A program made the position numbers and the translations under genes. Shown piece after piece: positions 37,866 to 49,481 of a DNA stretch of 64,000 nt. Below the pieces are notes generated by a model that saw only the letters and a list, made by a program, of their open reading frames with translations, ran no database searches and had not been told where the DNA came from. This stretch comes from Botryllus schlosseri (Eukaryota). The stretch lies in the NCBI GenBank assembly GCA_051294905.1, contig CM119372.1, forward strand, positions 13,208,001 through 13,272,000. Reading direction: 5' to 3'. Each line of letters starts with the position of its first letter. The first letter of the stretch is position 1.

Positions 37866-39005
37866 CTAGTTGAGCTGAAGAGTTACGGTGGCTTCTTCCT
37901 CATCGTCATCGCTATCAATGACAATTGCTTCCGTATCGGTGACATCCTTCTTTACTGCATCCTCTCCCGCTGTGAAAGTATTCTCGGAATTTTTCATCAC
38001 CCAGCTGAGCTTCGTTTCTGGCGTCGACTCGGTTACATTTTGATCCACTTCAATCTCTTCCTCTTCTGTTTCCGCGACAATTTTAACTTCGCTCATTTCA
38101 TATACGTTCGCTTCTTTGTCAACACTCACCAATGTGACTGATTTCGATGACGTCAAGGACGACTTCAAGTTTTGATCTTTCGCGACTTTGTCATTCTTGA
38201 TGGATTCCTTCACTAATTCAGTGAAGATTTTTGCTTTCTTGGTAGCGATATTGACGCATTTCAAGACGTGCTCACTGTTCACTTGGATGGATCCGCTCAT
38301 TTGAGTGCAGCAGACTTCGCGATGCTTGTTGACGGCAAGAATCAATTTTCCGTTGCAGCAATTCTCTTCGATTTTAGTCGGGTCGTTCAGTAAAATTGTA
38401 CCGTTGTCGAAAAAGGAGAAAGTTACACAAAACGGCTGATGATTGAACACGAGAGGAACGGGATTTTTTTCGTCAAAAGAATGTATTTGCACATCCTTAC
38501 CGATCACCGTCACATCAGGTCTCTTGAAATGTGACAACGCGGCGATAGCTGCGATTGCTGAGCAATCTAGCAAGTTTCCATCGTGTGAAAGAATTTGGAT
38601 GTAAAGGGATACATTCCAAGCCTGCTCACCTACACGTACGCACAGTTCTTCCAAGTCAACCGCTTTTGAAAATACGATAGATCGTTCTAGCAGCCTTTGT
38701 AATTCCACTCCCAATTCGCCAGGTTTTGTCGGATCAAAACTGGGTGATCCCATTGTTGACATTTCCACAAAAATACCCAGGTTACCTTCTTGCGGTCTGC
38801 TCTCTTTAGGTCTGTCCATTTCCGCGGAAACATGCGCTAATATTTTGGTTTTACCCAGTGTGACAATGCAAGTGCCATGGTCGAGTTTGTAAGAAATCGT
38901 GATGTCTCTGACAGTCTGTAAATTCCTTTTGTCCAGTCTCTTTCCCTCTTTGATACACTTTACTATGAAGTCGTACTCACATTTGGATAACGGTATCTCC
39001 CTCAT
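37866..39005 (-). CDS. EXOSC9: Exosome complex component RRP45 (RNase PH family), 379 aa, intronless
   Basis: MREIPLSKCE..RLDKR..LGKTKILA..RLLERS..AVDLEELC..HDGNLLDC..ALSHFKRPDVTV..P.CVTF match RRP45; acidic C-tail. First ATG at 39005 (the ORF track starts at an upstream GTG). Confidence 0.95.
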   Translation of the reverse strand: MREIPLSKCEYDFIVKCIKEGKRLDKRNLQTVRDITISYKLDHGTCIVTLGKTKILAHVSAEMDRPKESRPQEGNLGIFVEMSTMGSPSFDPTKPGELGVELQRLLERSIVFSKAVDLEELCVRVGEQAWNVSLYIQILSHDGNLLDCSAIAAIAALSHFKRPDVTVIGKDVQIHSFDEKNPVPLVFNHQPFCVTFSFFDNGTILLNDPTKIEENCCNGKLILAVNKHREVCCTQMSGSIQVNSEHVLKCVNIATKKAKIFTELVKESIKNDKVAKDQNLKSSLTSSKSVTLVSVDKEANVYEMSEVKIVAETEEEEIEVDQNVTESTPETKLSWVMKNSENTFTAGEDAVKKDVTDTEAIVIDSDDDEEEATVTLQLN

Positions 39006-39818
39006 GGTTAATAATAGCAACCTAATTTGACGCAAAGGGCTAACGAAAACAACAAATATGTTTATCAGAAAACAAGGCACGCTGTTCACATATCAACGAT
39101 GAGCCGTCACACTTCATTTGATATGTATGGAGCCATAGTAGTTTAGTGCTGCTGAGCTATATAAACAGTTTAGTGCGGTGCAGTTCAGTTTATTTATAAT
39201 TTTTATCATTTTAAAACACCACAAGACTGCGATACAATGAAAATATAGGACTTATGAATAGTATCATTTTGTTGGTACAAGCATGGAAAACTGAATGAAG
39301 CAAGATACCATAAGGAAAGGAAAGGAAAGGACGTAGTTTATTTTTATCCTCATTATCATCATTGGTTTATTAGCAATCCTTGATGTTTTTTGCGGCATAC
39401 ACCGACTCATGATACACATACCATGAGTGCATGATGTGCATATGCCGCTGGACAAGTAAGTGCAGATAGAACCTTTACGGCGTTCTATGTCATGCACCAC
39501 CCCTTCATGCTATCCCAGTAATGCATGAGCGCCAAGCAGGGAAGTCATGGACATAGGCGCCGAGTTACGGGGTGGCGGGGTGGCGCAGCCACCCCATGAA
39601 ATACTTATGGGGTGACGGCCACCCCATACAATAAGATGAAACGCTCACCGTCTGCGATTTCAAATCATCAGCGCTCTCAATTAGCGAGTCCGTGATAGCC
39701 CGTAAATGTAAACTATTTACCATTAACCGATTCGCGCGCGAATAATTGAATACGCAGCTTCGTCGGCGACGACGAACTAGTGCTTAAAACGCCCCAATAA
39801 ATTGTAATGCGTGATTAG

Positions 39819-40315: not shown

Positions 40316-40750
40316 GTGATTAGTAATCAGACAATCGAAGCAACCTCGGTTACGTCGATTTCGACACGCTTGCGCTGAGAAACACCATCTTCTCTCTCGA
40401 CCAGACGAGAGAATTCACGTTCTCCTATGACGTTGATGTGTATTTGCGCCCATATTCGTTTACAAAATAATTCTTGAGTTAGTTCCGTGTTAGTCTCGTT
40501 AATTAGAGGCTTGGAACGCGAAATAGGACAGTGTGTTTGTGTAGCCTATGCCTGCGAATTGAAAGTCATTCCTGCGCAAAATGCGCATATTCATTACTGT
40601 GATTGTGATTAACGTAATTATTATGTGTGTGCTCCCGACGCTCCTGTCACGCGATCGACAGAACGGGCTCGAAGGCGAGAGGACTGGTTGTGCGGTTTTT
40701 ACGGAAACGTTTTAAATACATTGAACTATATTACAAGCTATCGCGGCCCA

Positions 40751-41536
40751 ATGGCGAATATGAAGTTAACTGATATTGTGAAGAATTAGGCCTACGTAGA
40801 TTATCCAACGTCTGGGGATTTTGCAAAGTGGGTTGAGAAACGAGAACTGGTTGCCGAGCTTCAAGAACTGACGGACAAATTGCCAACTATTTTCCCATTG
40901 CTATTGGATGGTGCTGCATTTGCAGTGTTCAAGCAGTTGCCAGAGGCGGACAGAAAGGATTACAGCAAGTCAAAAGAAGCTATTTTGAATGCGTTTGGGG
41001 TAAATTGTTACGACGCGTATGGCCAATTCCAGCGAAGAATACTGCTGGATGACGAGCCTGTCGATGTGTACCTTCCCGACCTAAAAAGGCTGGCGCTATT
41101 GATTGGGTTGAAGGTGGATGCATCCGAGGCGTTAATTCGGTGCGCATTTGTAAATGGACTCCCATCAGAAGTTTCAGGCCAGTTAAAGTCTGTAGCAGGA
41201 TTGGACAAAATGAATTTGAGTGATCTTGTTGCACGGGCACGAGTAATAATGTCGGTCCGCAGCACCTTCAGTGTATCGTGCGGGGTCGGCTCGCGTCAGC
41301 GTAAGTACAACAGTTTTTTCTGCGGGAAGCTTGGTCACTTTGCTAGAGAATGTCCCATGAAAGAGCCGAGAAATGACGGTAACGAAACGGTCAGGAGGCA
41401 ACCAAGACGTTTTTCCTGCGGGAAGCTTGGCCATGTAGCCCGACAATGCAGAGCTGATGAACGTAACGAACCACAGCAGGAAAACTACCAAGGAGAACCG
41501 TCAGCACCGGACGCGTTCTCCCGGATTCACAAGTAG
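40751..41536 (+). pseudogene. gag with two degenerate CCHC zinc knuckles; in-frame TAG at 40787
   Basis: ATG 40751 is in frame with ORF 40880-41536; knuckles FFCGKLGHFAREC and FSCGKLGHVARQC each lack the first Cys. Confidence 0.88.
41479..41525 (+). promoter_or_regulatory. Predicted -1 ribosomal frameshift signal (gag to pol)
   Basis: G_GAA_AAC in the gag frame, 6-nt spacer, stem ggagaac-cgtc / gacg-c-gttctcc; the -1 frame is open from here into pol. Confidence 0.72.
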
Positions 41537-44470
41537 CGAAAAAGGTGCTTCCGTTTGTTGTAGTTGTAATTGGTGGAAAACCTCTCAAGGCTCTGGTGGA
41601 TACTGGGTGTCAGCAATCTGTTGTTCTTGAAGACGTATGTCGTCGTATGGGATATAACGCTTCTGGTCCTAGAAGGATTGTCGAGATGCTAAATGGAGAA
41701 AGTACTAGCTGTTACGGAGAGACCATGGTAACGATGGTTGTAAGCGAGACCAACGTCAGGGTGCGATGCCTGGTGGCCTCCGAGCTGGTATGTGCTGCTG
41801 ACTTGATTCTCGGTATTGATGTTATCCAGCAACTGGGCGGGGTATTCGTTGATCCAAACCTGGACGTGTGGTTTGGTGCAAAGGTGTGTGTAGCAAGTGC
41901 GGTGGTCGGGACGAATAAACAATTGCAAATTGACGATAAAGATTTCATTGCAAAATTTGATGGAGCGAAGTGGACTATGGAGTGGAGATGGGAAAATGGC
42001 GAGCCGGAGTTGACGAATCAATGTGCCGGATATCAGATACCATCGGAGTGTCGTACATCGTTTGATAATGAACTGAGTCAATGGATCAGAGACGGATGGT
42101 TGGTGGAGTACGATCCTGCTCGTCACGGGTCCCACGAGGGAATAATCCCACTGCTGGCGGTCAAGCAACCGAACAAAGAGCAGAAGGTACGACCGGTGAT
42201 GGACTACCGCGAGCTGAATTCCCATGTCATGAGTCACCCCGGAATGGATGCGGCTGTATGCCAAGATAAATTGAGAAATTGGCGCAAACGAAGTAATCGC
42301 GCATCTATCTTGGATATCCGGAAGGCATACCTACAGATTCACGTGTCAGAGAGGCTGCAAAAATTCCAAGTAGTGCGACATCAAGGAAAAGTTTACGTTA
42401 TGACACGAATGGGGTTCGGTTTGAACATCGGCCCAAACGTGATGACCAAGATCATTTCTACCGTATTGTCACTGGAAGACGATATAGCAAGGGTAACCGA
42501 CCATTATATCGACGACATATGGGTTGATGAGAATGTTGTGGTGGTTGAGAAAGTGCGCAGGCATTTGGCAAGTTATGGGTTAGCGACGAAGGATCCAGTT
42601 CCGTTGCGTGATGCACGTGTACTTGGATTGCGGGTGAATAAGACCCAGGATGGAGTACTGGAGTGGAAAAGAGATGGTGATCTGCCGAGTTTGAACGGCC
42701 ACATGACGATGAGGGGGCTATATTCTGTGTTCGGTAAGCTCACAGGGCATTATCCCGTGGCCGGGTGGTTGAGAACGGCCTGCAGTCATGTAAAACGCCT
42801 TACTAACGAGATAGCGTGGGATGCGGTAATACCGAATGCGGTTAGGCATTTGGCCGAAGAAATCTTGACGAAGGTACGAGAGACCGATCCAGTAAGAGGT
42901 GACTGGAGAGTATATCGTGATGGCAGAGCGCAAATATGGTGCGATGCGAGCAATATGGCGGTGGCATGCTGTTTGACCGTAAATGGGAAGGTTGTCGAAG
43001 ATGCAGCATGGATGAGGAAAGAGGACGACGGAACGCATATAAATGTCGCGGAGCTCGACGCTGTCGTAAAGGGATTGAGTTTGGTGCTGAGATGGGGTTT
43101 CACAAATGTGGAAGTTGTGACCGACTCGGTCAGCGTGTTCCATTGGGTCACGTCAATATTGGAAGATCCGCGCCGACATAGAGTCAGCGGGCTAAGTGAA
43201 ATGATTATTAAAAGAAGATTGGGAATTATCGCGCAGCTCTTTCAGGAATACTGCATGGAGGTTACAATTCGTTGGGTACCATCGTCGGAGAATCTCGCAG
43301 ATGCACTAACGAGAGTCCCGCAACGCTGGCTAAAGAAGGTGTGTCTTGGAGTAAACCGGCGTAATGAGAACGTGATTGAACAGGTACGGACTCTTCATAA
43401 CGTGTATCACCTAGGTGTGAATCGGACGCTTTTCGTGGCCAAAAGAAGCATTGGCGAAGCTGTTACTCGTGATGTTGTTCAACGAGTAATCAATGAGTGC
43501 AACATCTGTCGCAGAATTGATCCCGAGTCCCGTGAGATGGGAACACGGGCAACTTCCGTTCCCGTTGTCTGGGAGCGCCTGGAACTTGACATTACTTACG
43601 TCAACACTCGACCATACCTGAGTTTGATCGACTGCGGGCCTAGTCGATTTGCGATTTGGCGGGCGGTGCGAAATGAAACGGCCGATCAAATCATCCAGAT
43701 CCTTGAACAAGTCTTCTCGGACAGAGGTGCGCCGAGTGAAATTCTGAGTGATAACGGACCTTGTTTTACTAGCCAGAAAATGCGCCAGTCTTTAAACAGT
43801 TGGGGGGTGGAACATGTGTTCGGCTGCGCCTACTGGCATTCTGGAAACGGTATTGTGGAGCGGAATCACAGAACTATCAAAAGAATGGCCGCGAGATCTG
43901 GAGGTAGTGTTGAACGAATGGTGTATTGGTACAATCACACTCCGAATTCGGAGGATATTGTACCTGCGGATAAGGTGTTTCGCTATGAATCTGGTTTGCC
44001 ATCTTCAATGATCCGCGCAAAATAGTTCCAACCCATACCGAGTCGGTGATGTAGTGTTCGTGAAGCCACCAAATGCTCGATGTACTACTCCATGGAATAG
44101 AGGTGTCGTTACCAGGGTTGTCGCCGACGTGGTGGTTGAGGTTGACGGGATGAATCGACATCTTTCTGACGTTAGACTCGCCGTCGGCGATCTACCTAAC
44201 CCACCAGGAAGTGTTACGACGCGCGAAATCGACTTGAATTGTAGCAGAGGAGATGATGCCATTGATACGGAAAACAGCGGTAACTCGGGTGAAGCTAATG
44301 GTCCAGTCGGTACGGAAGAGAATATCACCGATGGGAATAACTCGGCTAATCTGGATCAACCTGGTGATGACAATGTCGATCAAGATATTGAGAGAAATCA
44401 CTCTGAACATTCGCGACCAAATCCGGATCGAGCGCCGCCACAATGGCTGGCTGATTTTTATGTAGGCTAG
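41486..44470 (+). pseudogene. pol polyprotein (protease, RT, RNase H, integrase); frameshift near 44020 separates the C-terminal part
   Basis: LVDTG; LDIRKAYLQ, RMGFGL, YIDD; CDAS..AEL..TDS..ADALTR; HHCC and ELD..SDNG..VERNHR; continues in the 44054-44470 frame. Confidence 0.93.
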
Positions 44471-45121
44471 ATGTTGAGTGTATCTGTACTAAGAATAAGT
44501 GATTTTTTTTACATTTTGATTTGTTCGCGCGTAATGCTTATGCCTTGTGATGATTGCATATACCTTGCAAGTTTTAGCCTTCAAGTACGAATTCTGTATG
44601 CTACAAATTCCAGTTATCATCGCTTTCGTCCATCGTTTGAGGCACACCTACACCGCAGTTTTTCGTTTCTTGTACGCCAGTATGTTTTAATTGTGGGATC
44701 CACTTTGTGTGCTTCTAATAGCAAACGACTCGTGTTAATTTATTCAGAATTAGCCCATTGGCCAGACAGTCTTATATAGGCTCTGGCTCACTGCGGGGTT
44801 ACACTCAAAAGCTTTGAATTTGGTTCAGTGATCGTTAGATCACGGGGGTAGGAAGACCAAATGACTCCCCGTCCCCGTCAATAGATCACAGGCATATATC
44901 GAAATTTAACTTTCAATTTGATGTATCGATATGTGTACACTGCGTATAAGTTTTTTTGTTTCCACACGATGACTTGGCTTCCCGTGCGATCTTCAGACCA
45001 AGGGGAAGTTTGCCGTTTCATGTATACACTGTTTTAGAATTGTTCACCTGGTTTTCACGTTTGAAGTTACATCGTTGCGTTATGTGTTGGTTTCCCTTGT
45101 GATCTTTAGATCAAGGGGAAG

Positions 45122-45437
45122 GACGTAGTTTATTTTTGTCCTTGATGTTTTTGCGGCATATACACCGACTCATGATATACATACACACGATCTGCGCATA
45201 TGCATACCATGAGTGCATGATGTGCATATGCCGCTGGACAAGGAAGTGCAGATATAGCCTTTACGACTTTCTAAGTCATGCACCAGCCCTCCAATCTATC
45301 CCAGTAATGCATGAGCGCCAAGCAGGGAAGCCATGGATACCAGTGTTACTAATCAGGTCTTTGGTCTGACCCGGCCGGGAATCGAACCCACGACCTACCG
45401 ATCAAGAAGCCGGACGCTTAACCATTACGCTATCTTG
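45122..45437 (-). mobile_element. tRNA-derived SINE (family A), full length
   Basis: A box TAGCGTAATGG, B box GGTTCGATTCC; TSD tttagatcaaggggaag (45105-45121; right copy split by a MITE). Confidence 0.88.
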
Positions 45438-45445
45438 ATTTAGAT

Positions 45446-47292
45446 CAGTGGTTCTTAACCTTTTTTCCTCCAGCGCCCCCTTTCAAAAATTATCGTGCTC
45501 CAGCGCCCCCCAACTTCATATTGTGAGGAATGTAATAAAGGCAGGGCCGTAACAGCACTTCGTCAACCCCCCCCCCCTATAAACGATTGCCTTGCGTACC
45601 CATAGCGTGATAAAACCAAACTTCTGAGGGCTTCGCCACCACGAACCCCATAGCGTGATTTCGATGGTCAGCAAAGTTTGTGTGGCCTGAATGATGCATG
45701 AATGAATAGGTGGTAATTACATATATAAGTCGCTATAAACTTTTTATCCTCTCAGCCCACGTAATTAGATTTACCAGTAGCGCTGAGTGAGCTGTTGTAT
45801 AGGAAAATAAACGGCCCGTAAGTAATAGTTGAACATATTCGGGCGTGCCCGTAGGTAAAATTATTCGTTACCAGGGCCATAACAGCACTTCGTCAGCCCC
45901 CCCCCCCAAACAAAAAACGTTGGTCCTGGGCCCCAATCGGGCGATGAACCAAACTACCAGGGTACTTCACCCCGAGACCCCCATTCGGCTGTCCGCTATT
46001 TGCTGATATGCTGGTATTTGCTGATTTTTGCTATTTGCTGATTTGCTGGTATCTACATTGGGTGTCCATTTACTGAGGCAGCTACTCTCGCCTAGACGCG
46101 CGAAGCGCGGAAAATTTCACTAATTAATGATTGAAATTGGTCAATATGATCGGGAATTGGATGTATATTGAGATCAATTTTTATCTTCTCTCTGCTCTCG
46201 TAAACAGATTTACCGGTAGAGCTGAGTGATGTGTGTTTGAAAAGGTAGGACCCCTCAATAATAATTATAGATCTTCGGGCGTATACCCGTTGGCAGGAAC
46301 GAAACGTCACTTCGTCAGGCCCCCGAAAAAACTTGGGTCTTGGGCTCCCATAGGGTGATAAACCAACCGCCACCCCCCCCCCCCCCACATCACGTTGTTC
46401 GCTTTTGCCACGGAATCAGCTGTACTGTTTAGCGAGCCAGTGCGAAGCGCGAAAACTTTTGATAATTCATGCTAAAATCGGTCAGTAAGACCGGGACCGG
46501 GAATTGCAAATATATTGCTACCAATTTCTTGTCCTCTGTGCTCACGTTACCAGATTTACCGGTAGAGCTGAGTGAGATGCAATGTTCCCTCAAAGTTGCG
46601 CACGTGCGCAGTGCTGACACCGTCTCTGCGTACAGAAAATCTACGTTGCTCACAACAAATCCGAAGTTAGGACCTTTTTTTTAATCGTCGTTACGCACTG
46701 TTGTCCAAGGGTCAGCGCAGTGACTTGTTGAGTGTGCGCAGACTCATCAAAACTTGAGGCGAACATTGTGAGGTGTCTTGGAAACTGTAGGGCCCGTAAC
46801 TAATAATTAAACATATTCGGGCGGGCGAACCCGTTGATATGACTTCGTTGCATGATGTTATTTCGTGACCTCCTGTCTGCAATATCAAAAAATATAGAAT
46901 CGCCCAACAGGAATATCCCTGTCGCCCAATCTTACTAAACTAAGAGACACACACGATTTCAAATTGGTATTTCTTCACTGGCATATAATTTTTCCCTGCC
47001 AGATGGAATTCGTGTTCTTGGGTGCAGATTGCCAAGACAGGAACATTCGGTGCCAGTCATTTAGGCGCCCATGGACAATTAAACCTATATGTATTTTGAA
47101 GGCTATATATAACGAAGTTTTCGGTGTTAATTTGCTCTGAATACTCATTAAGGATATGTTCTATCATCACATCATCTACTGCGAAGCCATTTTCCTCCAG
47201 CGCCCCCCATATCGCCCCCTGAGCGTTTCCGCCCCCCTTCAAAATCGCCAGCGCCCCCTGGGGGGCGCTGGGAGCAAGGTTAAGAACCACTG
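45446..47292. mobile_element. hAT/Charlie-like MITE with nested MITEs (about 45542-47125 and 46580-46768)
   Basis: TIRs cagtggttcttaacctt / aaggttaagaaccactg; exact TSD ATTTAGAT; the inner part is an inverted relative of 1268-2557, itself interrupted by caatgttccctc..gaggcgaacattg. Confidence 0.88.
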
Positions 47293-49481
47293 ATTTAGAT
47301 CAAGGGGAAGTGTGATTGTGATTAACGTAATTATTATGTGTGTGCTCCCGACGCTCCTGTCACGCGATCGACAGAACGGGCTCGAAGGCGAGAGGACTGG
47401 TTGTGCGGTTTTTACGGAAACGTTTTAAATACATTGAACTATATTACAATTACTCCAACATGGCTTTGCCAACTTTTATCGGGAAATGCAACAATGCAGC
47501 TCAAACGTCGTTATAATGAGCAAACAGTTGTCGCGATGTCAGACTCGGAGCCCCATTGTGCTGTACGCAAATTGAGGAATTACTGATTCGTTCGCTATCA
47601 TCTGTACAGTAGGCTACTAATTCTTGTCTGCTTTATACACTCGCGTTCCCTATAAGTGTCACTTACCAGTGTTTGAGTTGTTATTAATATCTCGCAATGT
47701 GCAGTGCACAGCGTTGAATTACGTTGTCAAATATTGATGCAACACGAGATTCTCGGTAGCGCAAATTCTGAATTTATAGGATAGGTTTGAACGGGAACCT
47801 TCTATGTTCCAATACACTTCATTGCTGGACGGACTCTGTCGACCGCAACCATATCGCGGATAGAATTTCAAACCTTTGGGATATGTATTTCTATTGATAA
47901 GGTCGCGCCATGCGCCCATATCGCTCTTGCTGCAATAACACGTGGATAATTGAAAGCGCACCATTTTACGATCAAATTCGACTTGCTGATCGGGGCCTAC
48001 GTAGGCCGTATAGGCCCCGGGCTGATATTAACCAGCGCGTTGTCGGCATTAAAACCCCAGATGCGTAGCCAAGGAGTTTCTCATTTACAACTAGAAATCC
48101 CGTTCTTTCGAAATGCCAATTCACTAATTCGTATTATCGATGCTGCGTACTGCAAATTAGCTAGAATCATTTGTATGCGAAATGGGTCATCGATATCTCA
48201 TGTGCACTATCGTCGGTATTTTGATTTAGCACGTCCGCATGCAGGCCTGCTGTCGTCCGCAAAAACACTTTCGCCAAACAGTAACAATCTCCGAGTGTAA
48301 TATTGTTTGTGTTCATGTTCATGTATCTTTTTGATTAACACTTATGCCCGCGTCCGAGCAAATTGTGCTCGTTGCCATTGCCGAATCTGGGTATTTGGGT
48401 ATGATTAGCGCACCCTGTAATTGTAATTATTGCAGGTTTGCGGCATGTCTGCAATTTCGTTATCAGCGCAACCTTGCCGGCCGATTGTACAGTCCGATAA
48501 TATTGATCAATACTATGTATTTCGCACAGCGTACTGATGCGTAACGAGCCTTATTAGATGTACAAATTCGACCCCATCGTTGGAAACCTAGATTCCATCG
48601 CGTGCTCTGAGAAACACCATCTCCTATCGCGATTTAACGACCAAATATACGTTCACATTCTACAAATTAAAGTGCATTAATTGCATCGATGAGGGCCGCA
48701 AGTCGCGTTTAAAATATTTTGTGAACCATTTTTGTGATAAATATTCGCGGAGCGCAAAGTTGAACAGTGTTTTATTGTGTGTGCCTGCTAGTTTGAATTT
48801 ATTCCAGTGCCCATAATATTATTCCAATTATGCTTTGCGGACGTAAATCGGAAAATGCTGTCAAAATCGATGTTTTAATCAGCAATCAATTGTCGCGATG
48901 CGAGCTACTCAATACTAAATAAAAACCCATTGTGTGGGCCGCGTGGGCGGTAAATGATAATTACTGATTGGCCGTGCGCGTTTGTAATCATAATTCCTGT
49001 CCGTCCTTCGTGTTCCAGAATTGTCGTGCCGTGTTACTGCTCAGTTCTCAGTCCAGCGATGAATGCCGAGTGCGCCGCAATCAATGACCTAATTTCGCAG
49101 TAGTCTCAGCGGGAGATCGCGTAGCGCTGCATTGTGCGATGCGATATGCGTGCACAAACGAATCTCGCTAATTGGTCGCGCCCCACGTAACACTGATAAC
49201 ACGACTTGTTGAATTGCAACTGAATATTAGCGCCAAGAATGGTCATTTCAAAAGGTCGGGGTTTTGCGAGGTCGGGGTTTTGCGTTTCAAAAGAAGGGGG
49301 GTTTCGACACCCCTTGGCCACTCGCCAGCCGCCACCCCATGCAAAAATAAAAGTCGGCGCCTATGGTCATGGATACCAGTGTTACTAATCAGGTCTTTGG
49401 TCTGACCCGGCCGAGGATCGAACCCACGACCTACCAATCAAGAAGCCGGACGCTTCACCATTACGCTATCTTGTCATAGTA

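Follow-up and report, generated by a model that had tools for sequence, protein, structure and literature searches.

The 64-kb window analyzed here (64,000 nucleotides (nt) of Botryllus schlosseri contig CM119372.1; coordinates below are positions within it) contains a long terminal repeat (LTR) retrotransposon, whose features are collected in Table 1. Immediately behind its 5' LTR lies a 12-nt sequence complementary to the 5' end of the host tRNA-Phe, which we regard as the probable primer-binding site of the element. A repeat search and pairwise alignment identified a direct repeat of 139 nt (40598-40736 and 47311-47449) with 100% identity. Because the final repeated base is also the first base of the target duplication ATTAC, the LTRs were assigned to 40598-40735 and 47311-47448.

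Table 1. Features of the retrotransposon in the window
Feature	Position	Strand	Remarks
5' target-site duplication ATTAC	40593..40597	+	matches 5 bases at 47449-47453, outside both LTRs
5' LTR, 138 bp, TG...CA	40598..40735	+	100% identity with 47311-47448
Putative primer-binding site AGCTATCGCGGC	40736..40747	+	complement of host tRNA-Phe(GAA) nt 1-12
gag, two CCHC zinc knuckles	40751..41536	+	PF00098, E 8.7e-11, two stretches
pol: protease, reverse transcriptase, DUF7047, RNase H, integrase	41467..44025	+	Pfam; -1 frame relative to gag
Pol C-terminal part, separate frame in the window copy	44012..44470	+	Pol of relatives reads through in one frame
Nested foreign repeats, ~2.19 kb	45122..47294	.	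between two copies of a 17-mer bearing the polypurine tract
Polypurine tract AAGGGGAAG	47302..47310	+	abuts 3' LTR
3' LTR, 138 bp	47311..47448	+	identical to 5' LTR
3' target-site duplication ATTAC	47449..47453	+	same as 40593-40597

Pfam matches gave the gene order gag, protease, reverse transcriptase (RT), RNase H, then integrase, with the integrase core at Pol residues 704-789, downstream of RT and RNase H. LTRs with a target duplication, this domain order and a polypurine tract (PPT) were all found, and they place the element among LTR retrotransposons with a retrovirus-like or Ty3-like gene order. An in-frame TAG (40787-40789) breaks gag in the window copy, where sister copies are open, and the pol frame is broken near 44012-44025; the open pol frame comprises 852 residues versus 1008-1400 in sister copies. 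If the nested insert is removed, the element measures ~4.7 kb; relatives with both LTR tails on one contig measure ~4.0-4.6 kb.

The junction at 40727-40756 reads ...TATATTACA, AGCTATCGCGGC, CCA and ATGGCG.... The 12-mer (40736-40747) begins at the first internal base and is followed by CCA (40748-40750) and the gag ATG at 40751. An earlier note, made from the letters of the window, had described this succession of LTR end, gapless 12-mer, CCA and gag ATG, and the sequence together with the LTR and target-duplication boundaries confirms it. Its further statement that a primer site initiated by TGG is lacking was also borne out: no such site follows the LTR, and the first TGG (40752) lies 16 nt in, within the start context of gag, in a stretch that differs in other families of the genome. 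Within the window, a single exact match to the 12-mer is present. Allowing up to one mismatch raises the number to two, versus 0.16 expected; the second, at 38539-38550 on the minus strand, is away from any LTR end. ARAGORN detected no tRNA gene in the 64 kb.

The host genome (495.5 Mb) carries the complement of the 12-mer 533 times, versus 13 for a control pattern. A pattern combining a tRNA-Phe-like D-arm with the GAA anticodon loop was found at 69 genomic places (0 for the control), and an anticodon-free pattern detected 70 tRNA-shaped places, all with the tRNA-Phe anticodon stem. Almost all fetched tRNA-Phe copies (29/30) begin with GCCGCGATAGCT, and ARAGORN called 27 tRNA-Phe genes in those loci. 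Nucleotides 1-12 of host tRNA-Phe(GAA) (GCCGCGATAGCT) are thus the exact complement of 40736-40747, and the match ends at tRNA nucleotide 1. It had been predicted from the window that tRNA-Phe would begin with this complement and that the match would halt at nucleotide 1, and the host genes show both. Nucleotides 1-12 are also the only match of at least 9 nt between the 5' region of the element and host tRNA-Phe. The tRNA-Lys, tRNA-Ala and tRNA-Met genes found by an Rfam search of the genome have different 5' starts.

tRNA genes form dense arrays in this genome. Dozens of tRNA-Lys(UUU) genes, many of them single-base variants, are located at C3:34.49-34.51 Mb, and ~45 tRNA-Phe copies, spaced by ~2-3.4 kb, at C12:26.01-26.16 Mb. 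The 30 fetched tRNA-Phe loci, eight of them in the C12 array, yielded 30 Val, 27 Phe and 24 Ile calls by ARAGORN.

The rest of the 533 occurrences consists of ~300 copies of a dispersed repeat and of retrotransposon sites. The repeat (loci L001 and L003-L008; ~300 genomic places) carries the 12-mer in the tRNA sense, with ACC before it and CAGAC or CAAAC after it. Because conserved sequence of at least 0.7 kb encloses the 12-mer, the latter does not form the head of a short interspersed nuclear element (SINE), and ARAGORN called no tRNA in the repeat. A different host RNA might be the primer if its end, natural or produced by a cut, consisted of the same 12 bases, for example a transcript of this repeat (12-mer followed by CAG or CAA). 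The abundance of the repeat, which accounted for seven of the first eight loci fetched, would favor such a source. However, its 12-mer is not at an RNA end but internal to the conserved sequence, and relatives of the element in other hosts carry the complement of a human- or Drosophila-type tRNA-Phe, which a universal tRNA explains and a genome-specific repeat does not. We therefore consider this source very unlikely.

Sister copies were located with a pattern that joined only the LTR tail to the gag start across 14 unspecified bases, so that the 12-mer itself was not used. Of the 29 copies of the window family found by these flanks, 28 preserve the 12-mer exactly and one differs from it at one base; the next two bases occur in three forms (CC, AC, AT). 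CA followed by the 12-mer is present at 83 genomic sites, versus 0 for a control pattern, and the 30 sites fetched represent six LTR families (10, 3, 3, 8, 4 and 2 loci) whose sequences differ on both sides. The question raised at the outset, whether sister copies keep the 12-mer, is thus answered in the affirmative, and the five further families behave likewise. An RT query of 400 aa matched 83 genomic pieces; 70 were cross-matched and 13, mostly short or second pieces of listed copies, were left out. CA plus the 12-mer lies upstream on the same strand at 56 of these 70 RT-homologous places, mostly 1344-1524 nt away, and the RT classes that have it include those with 63-66% and 42-45% identity. 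The other 14 places have no upstream CA plus 12-mer; one of them (C11) has a one-base variant. Moreover, three loci (L076, L085 and L095) are short derivatives of one LTR family, with LTR tails ~0.8-1.0 kb apart and the 12-mer kept after the first LTR. Other sequence follows their second LTR tail, confirming the LTR end, and the three loci resemble non-autonomous relatives in which the primer site is retained.

Self-priming of the Tf1 type, with the 5' end of the element's transcript as the pairing partner of the site, would suit a short site of 12 nt with no TGG, and the Tf1 self-primer is similarly short. However, the 12-mer pairs with its own LTR at no more than 9/12 positions, G-U pairs included, a value that 70% of shuffled LTRs reach. 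Six relatives behave similarly, only L127 reaching 11/12 (shuffle fraction 0.04), and the LTRs of the six families differ with the 12-mer constant. Self-priming was rejected because own-LTR pairing is no better than in shuffles, and we give it hardly any credence. Better pairing with the element's own transcript or with a tRNA 3' end, which the earlier note had named as one outcome that would overturn its proposal, was not found, the LTR giving the 9/12 above and no 3'-CCA site being present.

A Pol protein search returned 736 relatives, and DUF7047 is present in nearly all of them. From 27 aligned Pol proteins, 78 metagenome-contig loci were retrieved, and the 30 with DNA upstream of pol were examined. 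At 22 of these, AGCTAT-NNN-GGC stands right after ...CA (in two loci after TA or GA), with pol 658-1018 nt further downstream; the eight loci without the site have at most 741 nt of upstream DNA, seven of them less than 600 nt. Counted by loci, the variants are AGCTATTTCGGC (11), AGCTATCTAGGC (4), AGCTATCGCGGC (2), AGCTATCACGGC (2), AGCTATCACGCG (2, with identical junction sequence), AGCTATTTCGTC (1) and AGCTATCCCGGC (1). The LTR end is confirmed at four loci (L101, L105, L119 and L127), where other sequence stands behind a second LTR tail. At two others (L102 and L125) the 12-mer and the same leader recur behind the downstream LTR tail, which points to tandem elements with a common LTR or to an assembled circular or tandem form. 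ARAGORN found no tRNA genes on the 78 metagenome loci. The complement of human tRNA-Phe(GAA) nt 1-12, as given by a primer printed in PMC10505166, equals the majority variant AGCTATTTCGGC, and a Drosophila tRNA-Phe 5' probe listed in PMC7038984 contains the same variant, which is thus also the complement of nt 1-12 of that tRNA. The rarer 12-mer variants were also looked up in the literature, and no paper about tRNA was among the matches.

The shape of the conservation was measured as information content across 27 non-redundant junctions. Site positions 1-6 and 10 carry 2 bits, positions 7-9 carry 0.45-1.4 bits, positions 11-12 carry 1.5-1.8 bits, and the last three LTR bases (ACA) carry 1.5-2 bits. 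From position 13 onward the content is at most 0.41 bits, and in the LTR more than 5 bases from its end it is at most 0.52 bits, mostly below 0.4. The edges of conservation are therefore sharp and coincide with the LTR end and with tRNA nucleotide 1, and the variable positions 7-9 correspond to tRNA nucleotides 4-6 in the acceptor stem. At position 13, A is the commonest base (0.48, 13/27; 0.41 bits).

This profile bears on two further explanations. A canonical tRNA 3'-end site could lie downstream (TGGCGAATATG... from 40752), the 12-mer being an unrelated conserved leader motif, and a TGG is indeed present 16 nt after the LTR. However, that stretch is the start of gag, other families reading caagatgac, aatatgtcg and ccatcgacg; conservation past position 12 is at background; and the match of the 12-mer to host tRNA-Phe, together with its variation with hosts, would be left unexplained. 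A site of this kind is extremely improbable. Alternatively, the 12-mer could bind the tRNA-Phe 5' end for packaging, control of gag translation or site blocking, with priming achieved otherwise. The gag ATG follows close behind the site in all families (start codon 3-40 nt downstream), which would agree with such a role. On the other hand, the site is flush with the LTR end in 27/27 non-redundant junctions, which is where the 3' end of a primer must lie, and binding for another purpose would leave the element without any primer site, given no conserved TGG, no self-complementarity and background conservation after position 12. We consider a purely non-priming role unlikely.

An RT-RNase H tree of 20 rows was built, leaving out L127 and L154 (short matches) and L136 (duplicate of L128). 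The window element falls in a starred clade (95/98) together with three AGCTATTTCGGC elements, and the three rows with the window variant (CGCGGC) fall in three places of the tree. The seven site states need nine changes on the 20-row tree. An approximately unbiased (AU) test rejected the tree uniting the three window-variant rows by 88 log-likelihood units (p-AU 4.8e-6), the group having been named after the tree was seen. These results fit a site that would be set by the host tRNA rather than strictly inherited.

Taken together, our data indicate that minus-strand synthesis of this element is probably primed by a 12-nt 5' piece of host cytoplasmic tRNA-Phe(GAA) and not by a tRNA 3' CCA end. 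The earlier note had proposed such a fragment as the primer, and the host match, the sister copies and the lack of better pairing support it. What we infer beyond the pairing is that the paired piece primes, that it is produced by a cut and by which enzyme, and that the site is copied from the primer.

In LTR retroelements, the 3' nucleotide of the primer pairs with the first base after U5, and plus-strand strong-stop DNA extends over the primer up to a stopping point. With the site directly after U5, tRNA nucleotide 12 would pair with the first internal base, U12 would form the primer 3' end, and extension of its 3'-OH would lead directly into U5 and R. Such an end would require the tRNA to be cut within the D-stem, between nucleotides 12 and 13, because nucleotide 13 (C) faces the invariant LTR-terminal A, which would leave the 3' end of a longer fragment unpaired. 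A host nuclease may make this cut before annealing; alternatively, the RNase H of the element may cut the annealed intact tRNA at the end of the RNA duplex, in a Tf1-like manner. Plus-strand strong-stop DNA copying the primer would run off at tRNA nucleotide 1, and therefore conservation would stop exactly there. The excess of A at position 13 could be a non-templated base added as RT runs off the primer 5' end. In this scheme the primer would rewrite the site in each cycle, and a site so rewritten would track the tRNA-Phe of each host. Recopying of the primer site from tRNA has been described for human immunodeficiency virus (HIV) and murine leukemia virus in PMC7472051, and the review PMC7773854 gives a range of 8-18 nt for retrotransposon primer sites, within which 12 nt falls.

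Additional pairing was also considered. The window LTR has 7-8-nt matches to tRNA nt 15-22, 22-28 and 53-59. Extra tRNA-Phe pairing as in Ty1 or Ty3 was rejected, being absent from other families and found as often with a reversed-tRNA control.

Several points weigh against priming by the tRNA-Phe fragment. A nuclease that would cut tRNA between nucleotides 12 and 13 is not known to us. Short 5' tRNA fragments as usually described exceed 12 nt, and the additional bases at their 3' end would be unpaired opposite the LTR-terminal ACA. The host tRNA was compared directly in one genome only, and only the majority variant is tied to tRNA-Phe through published papers, the other four variants having no informative match. 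The site search in relatives, which allowed up to three changes from the window 12-mer (~0.6 chance matches expected per 1500 nt, per locus), is biased in that a very different site would have been missed. Because of this bias, what carries the argument is the constant placement of the site, the CA beside it, the presence of second LTR tails and the fact that differences fall almost only at site positions 7-9. Finally, ~300 copies of an unrelated dispersed repeat carry the same 12-mer, and the window copy is defective, since gag contains a stop, the pol frame is broken and repeats are nested in it.

On either side of the nested repeats stands a copy of the PPT-bearing 17-mer (45105-45121 and 47294-47310); the two copies are part of a direct repeat termed D5 (45105-45125 and 47294-47314). 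An inverted repeat (I1) has 29-nt arms at 45434-45462 and 47276-47304 that are 93% complementary, bounds ~1.8 kb and overlaps the duplicated 17-mer. A 113-bp unit with a PPT-like run is tandemly repeated at 44969-45008 and 45082-45121. A SINE-like repeat of ~320 bp is nested in the element on the minus strand (~45119-45439); its part at 45350-45430 looks tRNA-like in reverse by eye, and further copies are located at 39412-39551 and 49368-49473. Across 40400-47600, four RNA-seq runs with the same species label showed gag-pol depth near zero, and no pile of molecule starts or ends was reported. In the same four runs, reads pile up only on 44979-45460 (mean depth up to ~2,400 per strand orientation per bin). 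Loose poly-T read ends occur before 45119, which suggests polyadenylated minus-strand copies of the SINE-like repeat.

The choice and preparation of the primer is a defining step of LTR retroelement replication. Annotation tools seek complements of tRNA 3' ends, and a lineage using the tRNA-Phe 5' end would be missed or reported without a primer site. If the proposed priming is true, truncated-tRNA priming extends beyond Copia, a specific tRNA cut in the D-stem is implied, and a very short 5' tRNA piece gains a biological role. The element would also provide a natural case for asking whether the RNase H of a retroelement can cut a trans-paired host tRNA. Recopying of the site from the primer, if it occurs, would give the lineage built-in matching to any new host, which bears on horizontal spread.

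Precedent for a primer site complementary to a tRNA 5' end, for which the earlier note had called for a literature search, was not found in the literature covered, that is, outside subscription journals, Repbase reports and bioRxiv supplements. In the parts consulted, named tRNA types are all that is reported for metazoan Ty3/gypsy elements with env in a survey of these (PMC13524379), and Donnart 2017 describes a hairpin that replaces the primer site in fungal GalEa (PMC5445492).

Canonical retroviral and Ty3/gypsy elements share with the window element the use of a host tRNA, a site after U5, a PPT, TG...CA LTRs and a short target duplication. Their sites start with TGG and pair with the 3' CCA end, whereas the window element pairs with nucleotides 1-12 and its match ends at the tRNA 5' terminus. 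The length of the retroviral site is fixed at 18 nt by a modified tRNA base.

The Pol protein likewise has retroviral affinities. Its AlphaFold2 model (mean pLDDT, the predicted local distance difference test score, 80.8) gave its best fold matches with foamy virus and HIV-1 protease-RT. By sequence, the integrase is nearest to retroviral integrases (mouse mammary tumor virus, 5cz2, E 3e-12; Ty3, 7q5b, E 3e-3). In this respect, and as far as Wang and Han 2022 (PMC9040795) describes them, Odin retrotransposons and lokiretroviruses invite comparison, being, like the window element, env-less elements of marine invertebrates with a retrovirus-like gag-pol, and the integrase and protease-RT of the window element also resemble retroviral ones most. 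Odin is defined there by a dual RNase H, with a degenerate RNase H-like tether between RT and the second RNase H (PMC9040795). In our model, residues 355-488 form a beta hairpin and three helices (415-426, 435-444 and 457-472) followed by a single RNase H (488-603), as read from the model by eye and not by a domain-level fold search; DUF7047 is three-helix and thumb-like. Membership in Odin was rejected, since the window Pol model has three helices and then one RNase H. The Odin RT rows in supplement 1 of PMC9040795 look unlike the window RT by eye. The main text of PMC9040795, as available to us, has no mention of a primer site or tRNA, and the four 12-mers searched are absent from its supplements.

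Tf1 and Tj1 resemble the proposed mechanism in that cleavage where an RNA-RNA duplex formed at the site ends gives rise to a short primer. The RNase H domain of Tf1 reportedly makes the self-primer cut (Levin, 1996). In Tf1 and Tj1 the primer is the 5' end of their own mRNA, whereas the window element has no matching LTR sequence and the complement is the 5' end of a host tRNA in trans. Self-priming of Tf1/Tj1 and of the Tf1/sushi group is discussed in PMC4600332, in the part consulted.

The closest likeness is to copia, Ty5 and fungal Copia families, in which the primer is also a 5' tRNA piece made by an internal cut, whose new 3' end pairs next to the 5' LTR. In those elements the tRNA, mostly initiator Met but also Tyr, Ile and Asp, is cut within its anticodon loop or stem and pairs with the site through an internal segment, whereas in the window element the proposed cut follows nucleotide 12 in the D-stem, pairing reaches down to nucleotide 1, and the tRNA is Phe. 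Complementarity to the anticodon stem-loop was not found, matches shorter than 9 nt to tRNA-Phe being no more frequent than in controls. The window element also has the order RT-RNase H-integrase, unlike Ty1/copia, where integrase precedes RT. According to the sections of Kojima 2024 (PMC10886601) that we consulted, the tRNA 3' end is used by most elements and anticodon-loop priming is known for Ty5 and copia; the plant survey there reports 3'-truncated tRNA primers in Copia lineages only (PMC10886601). Priming from the tRNA-Phe 5' end, shared by a lineage, would extend 3'-truncated tRNA priming, with an earlier precedent being possible. More tentatively, and with doubt slightly outweighing confidence, we suggest that a mode not yet in print may be common to the whole widespread DUF7047-marked lineage (736 Pol relatives and 115 metagenome loci, from aquatic invertebrates and other eukaryotes). 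These elements may prime from tRNA-Phe nt 1-12 after a D-stem cut, possibly made by their own RNase H in trans, with the site rewritten from the host tRNA in each cycle, which would add a fourth mode to the three that rely on the tRNA 3' end, on an anticodon-loop cut or on self-priming.

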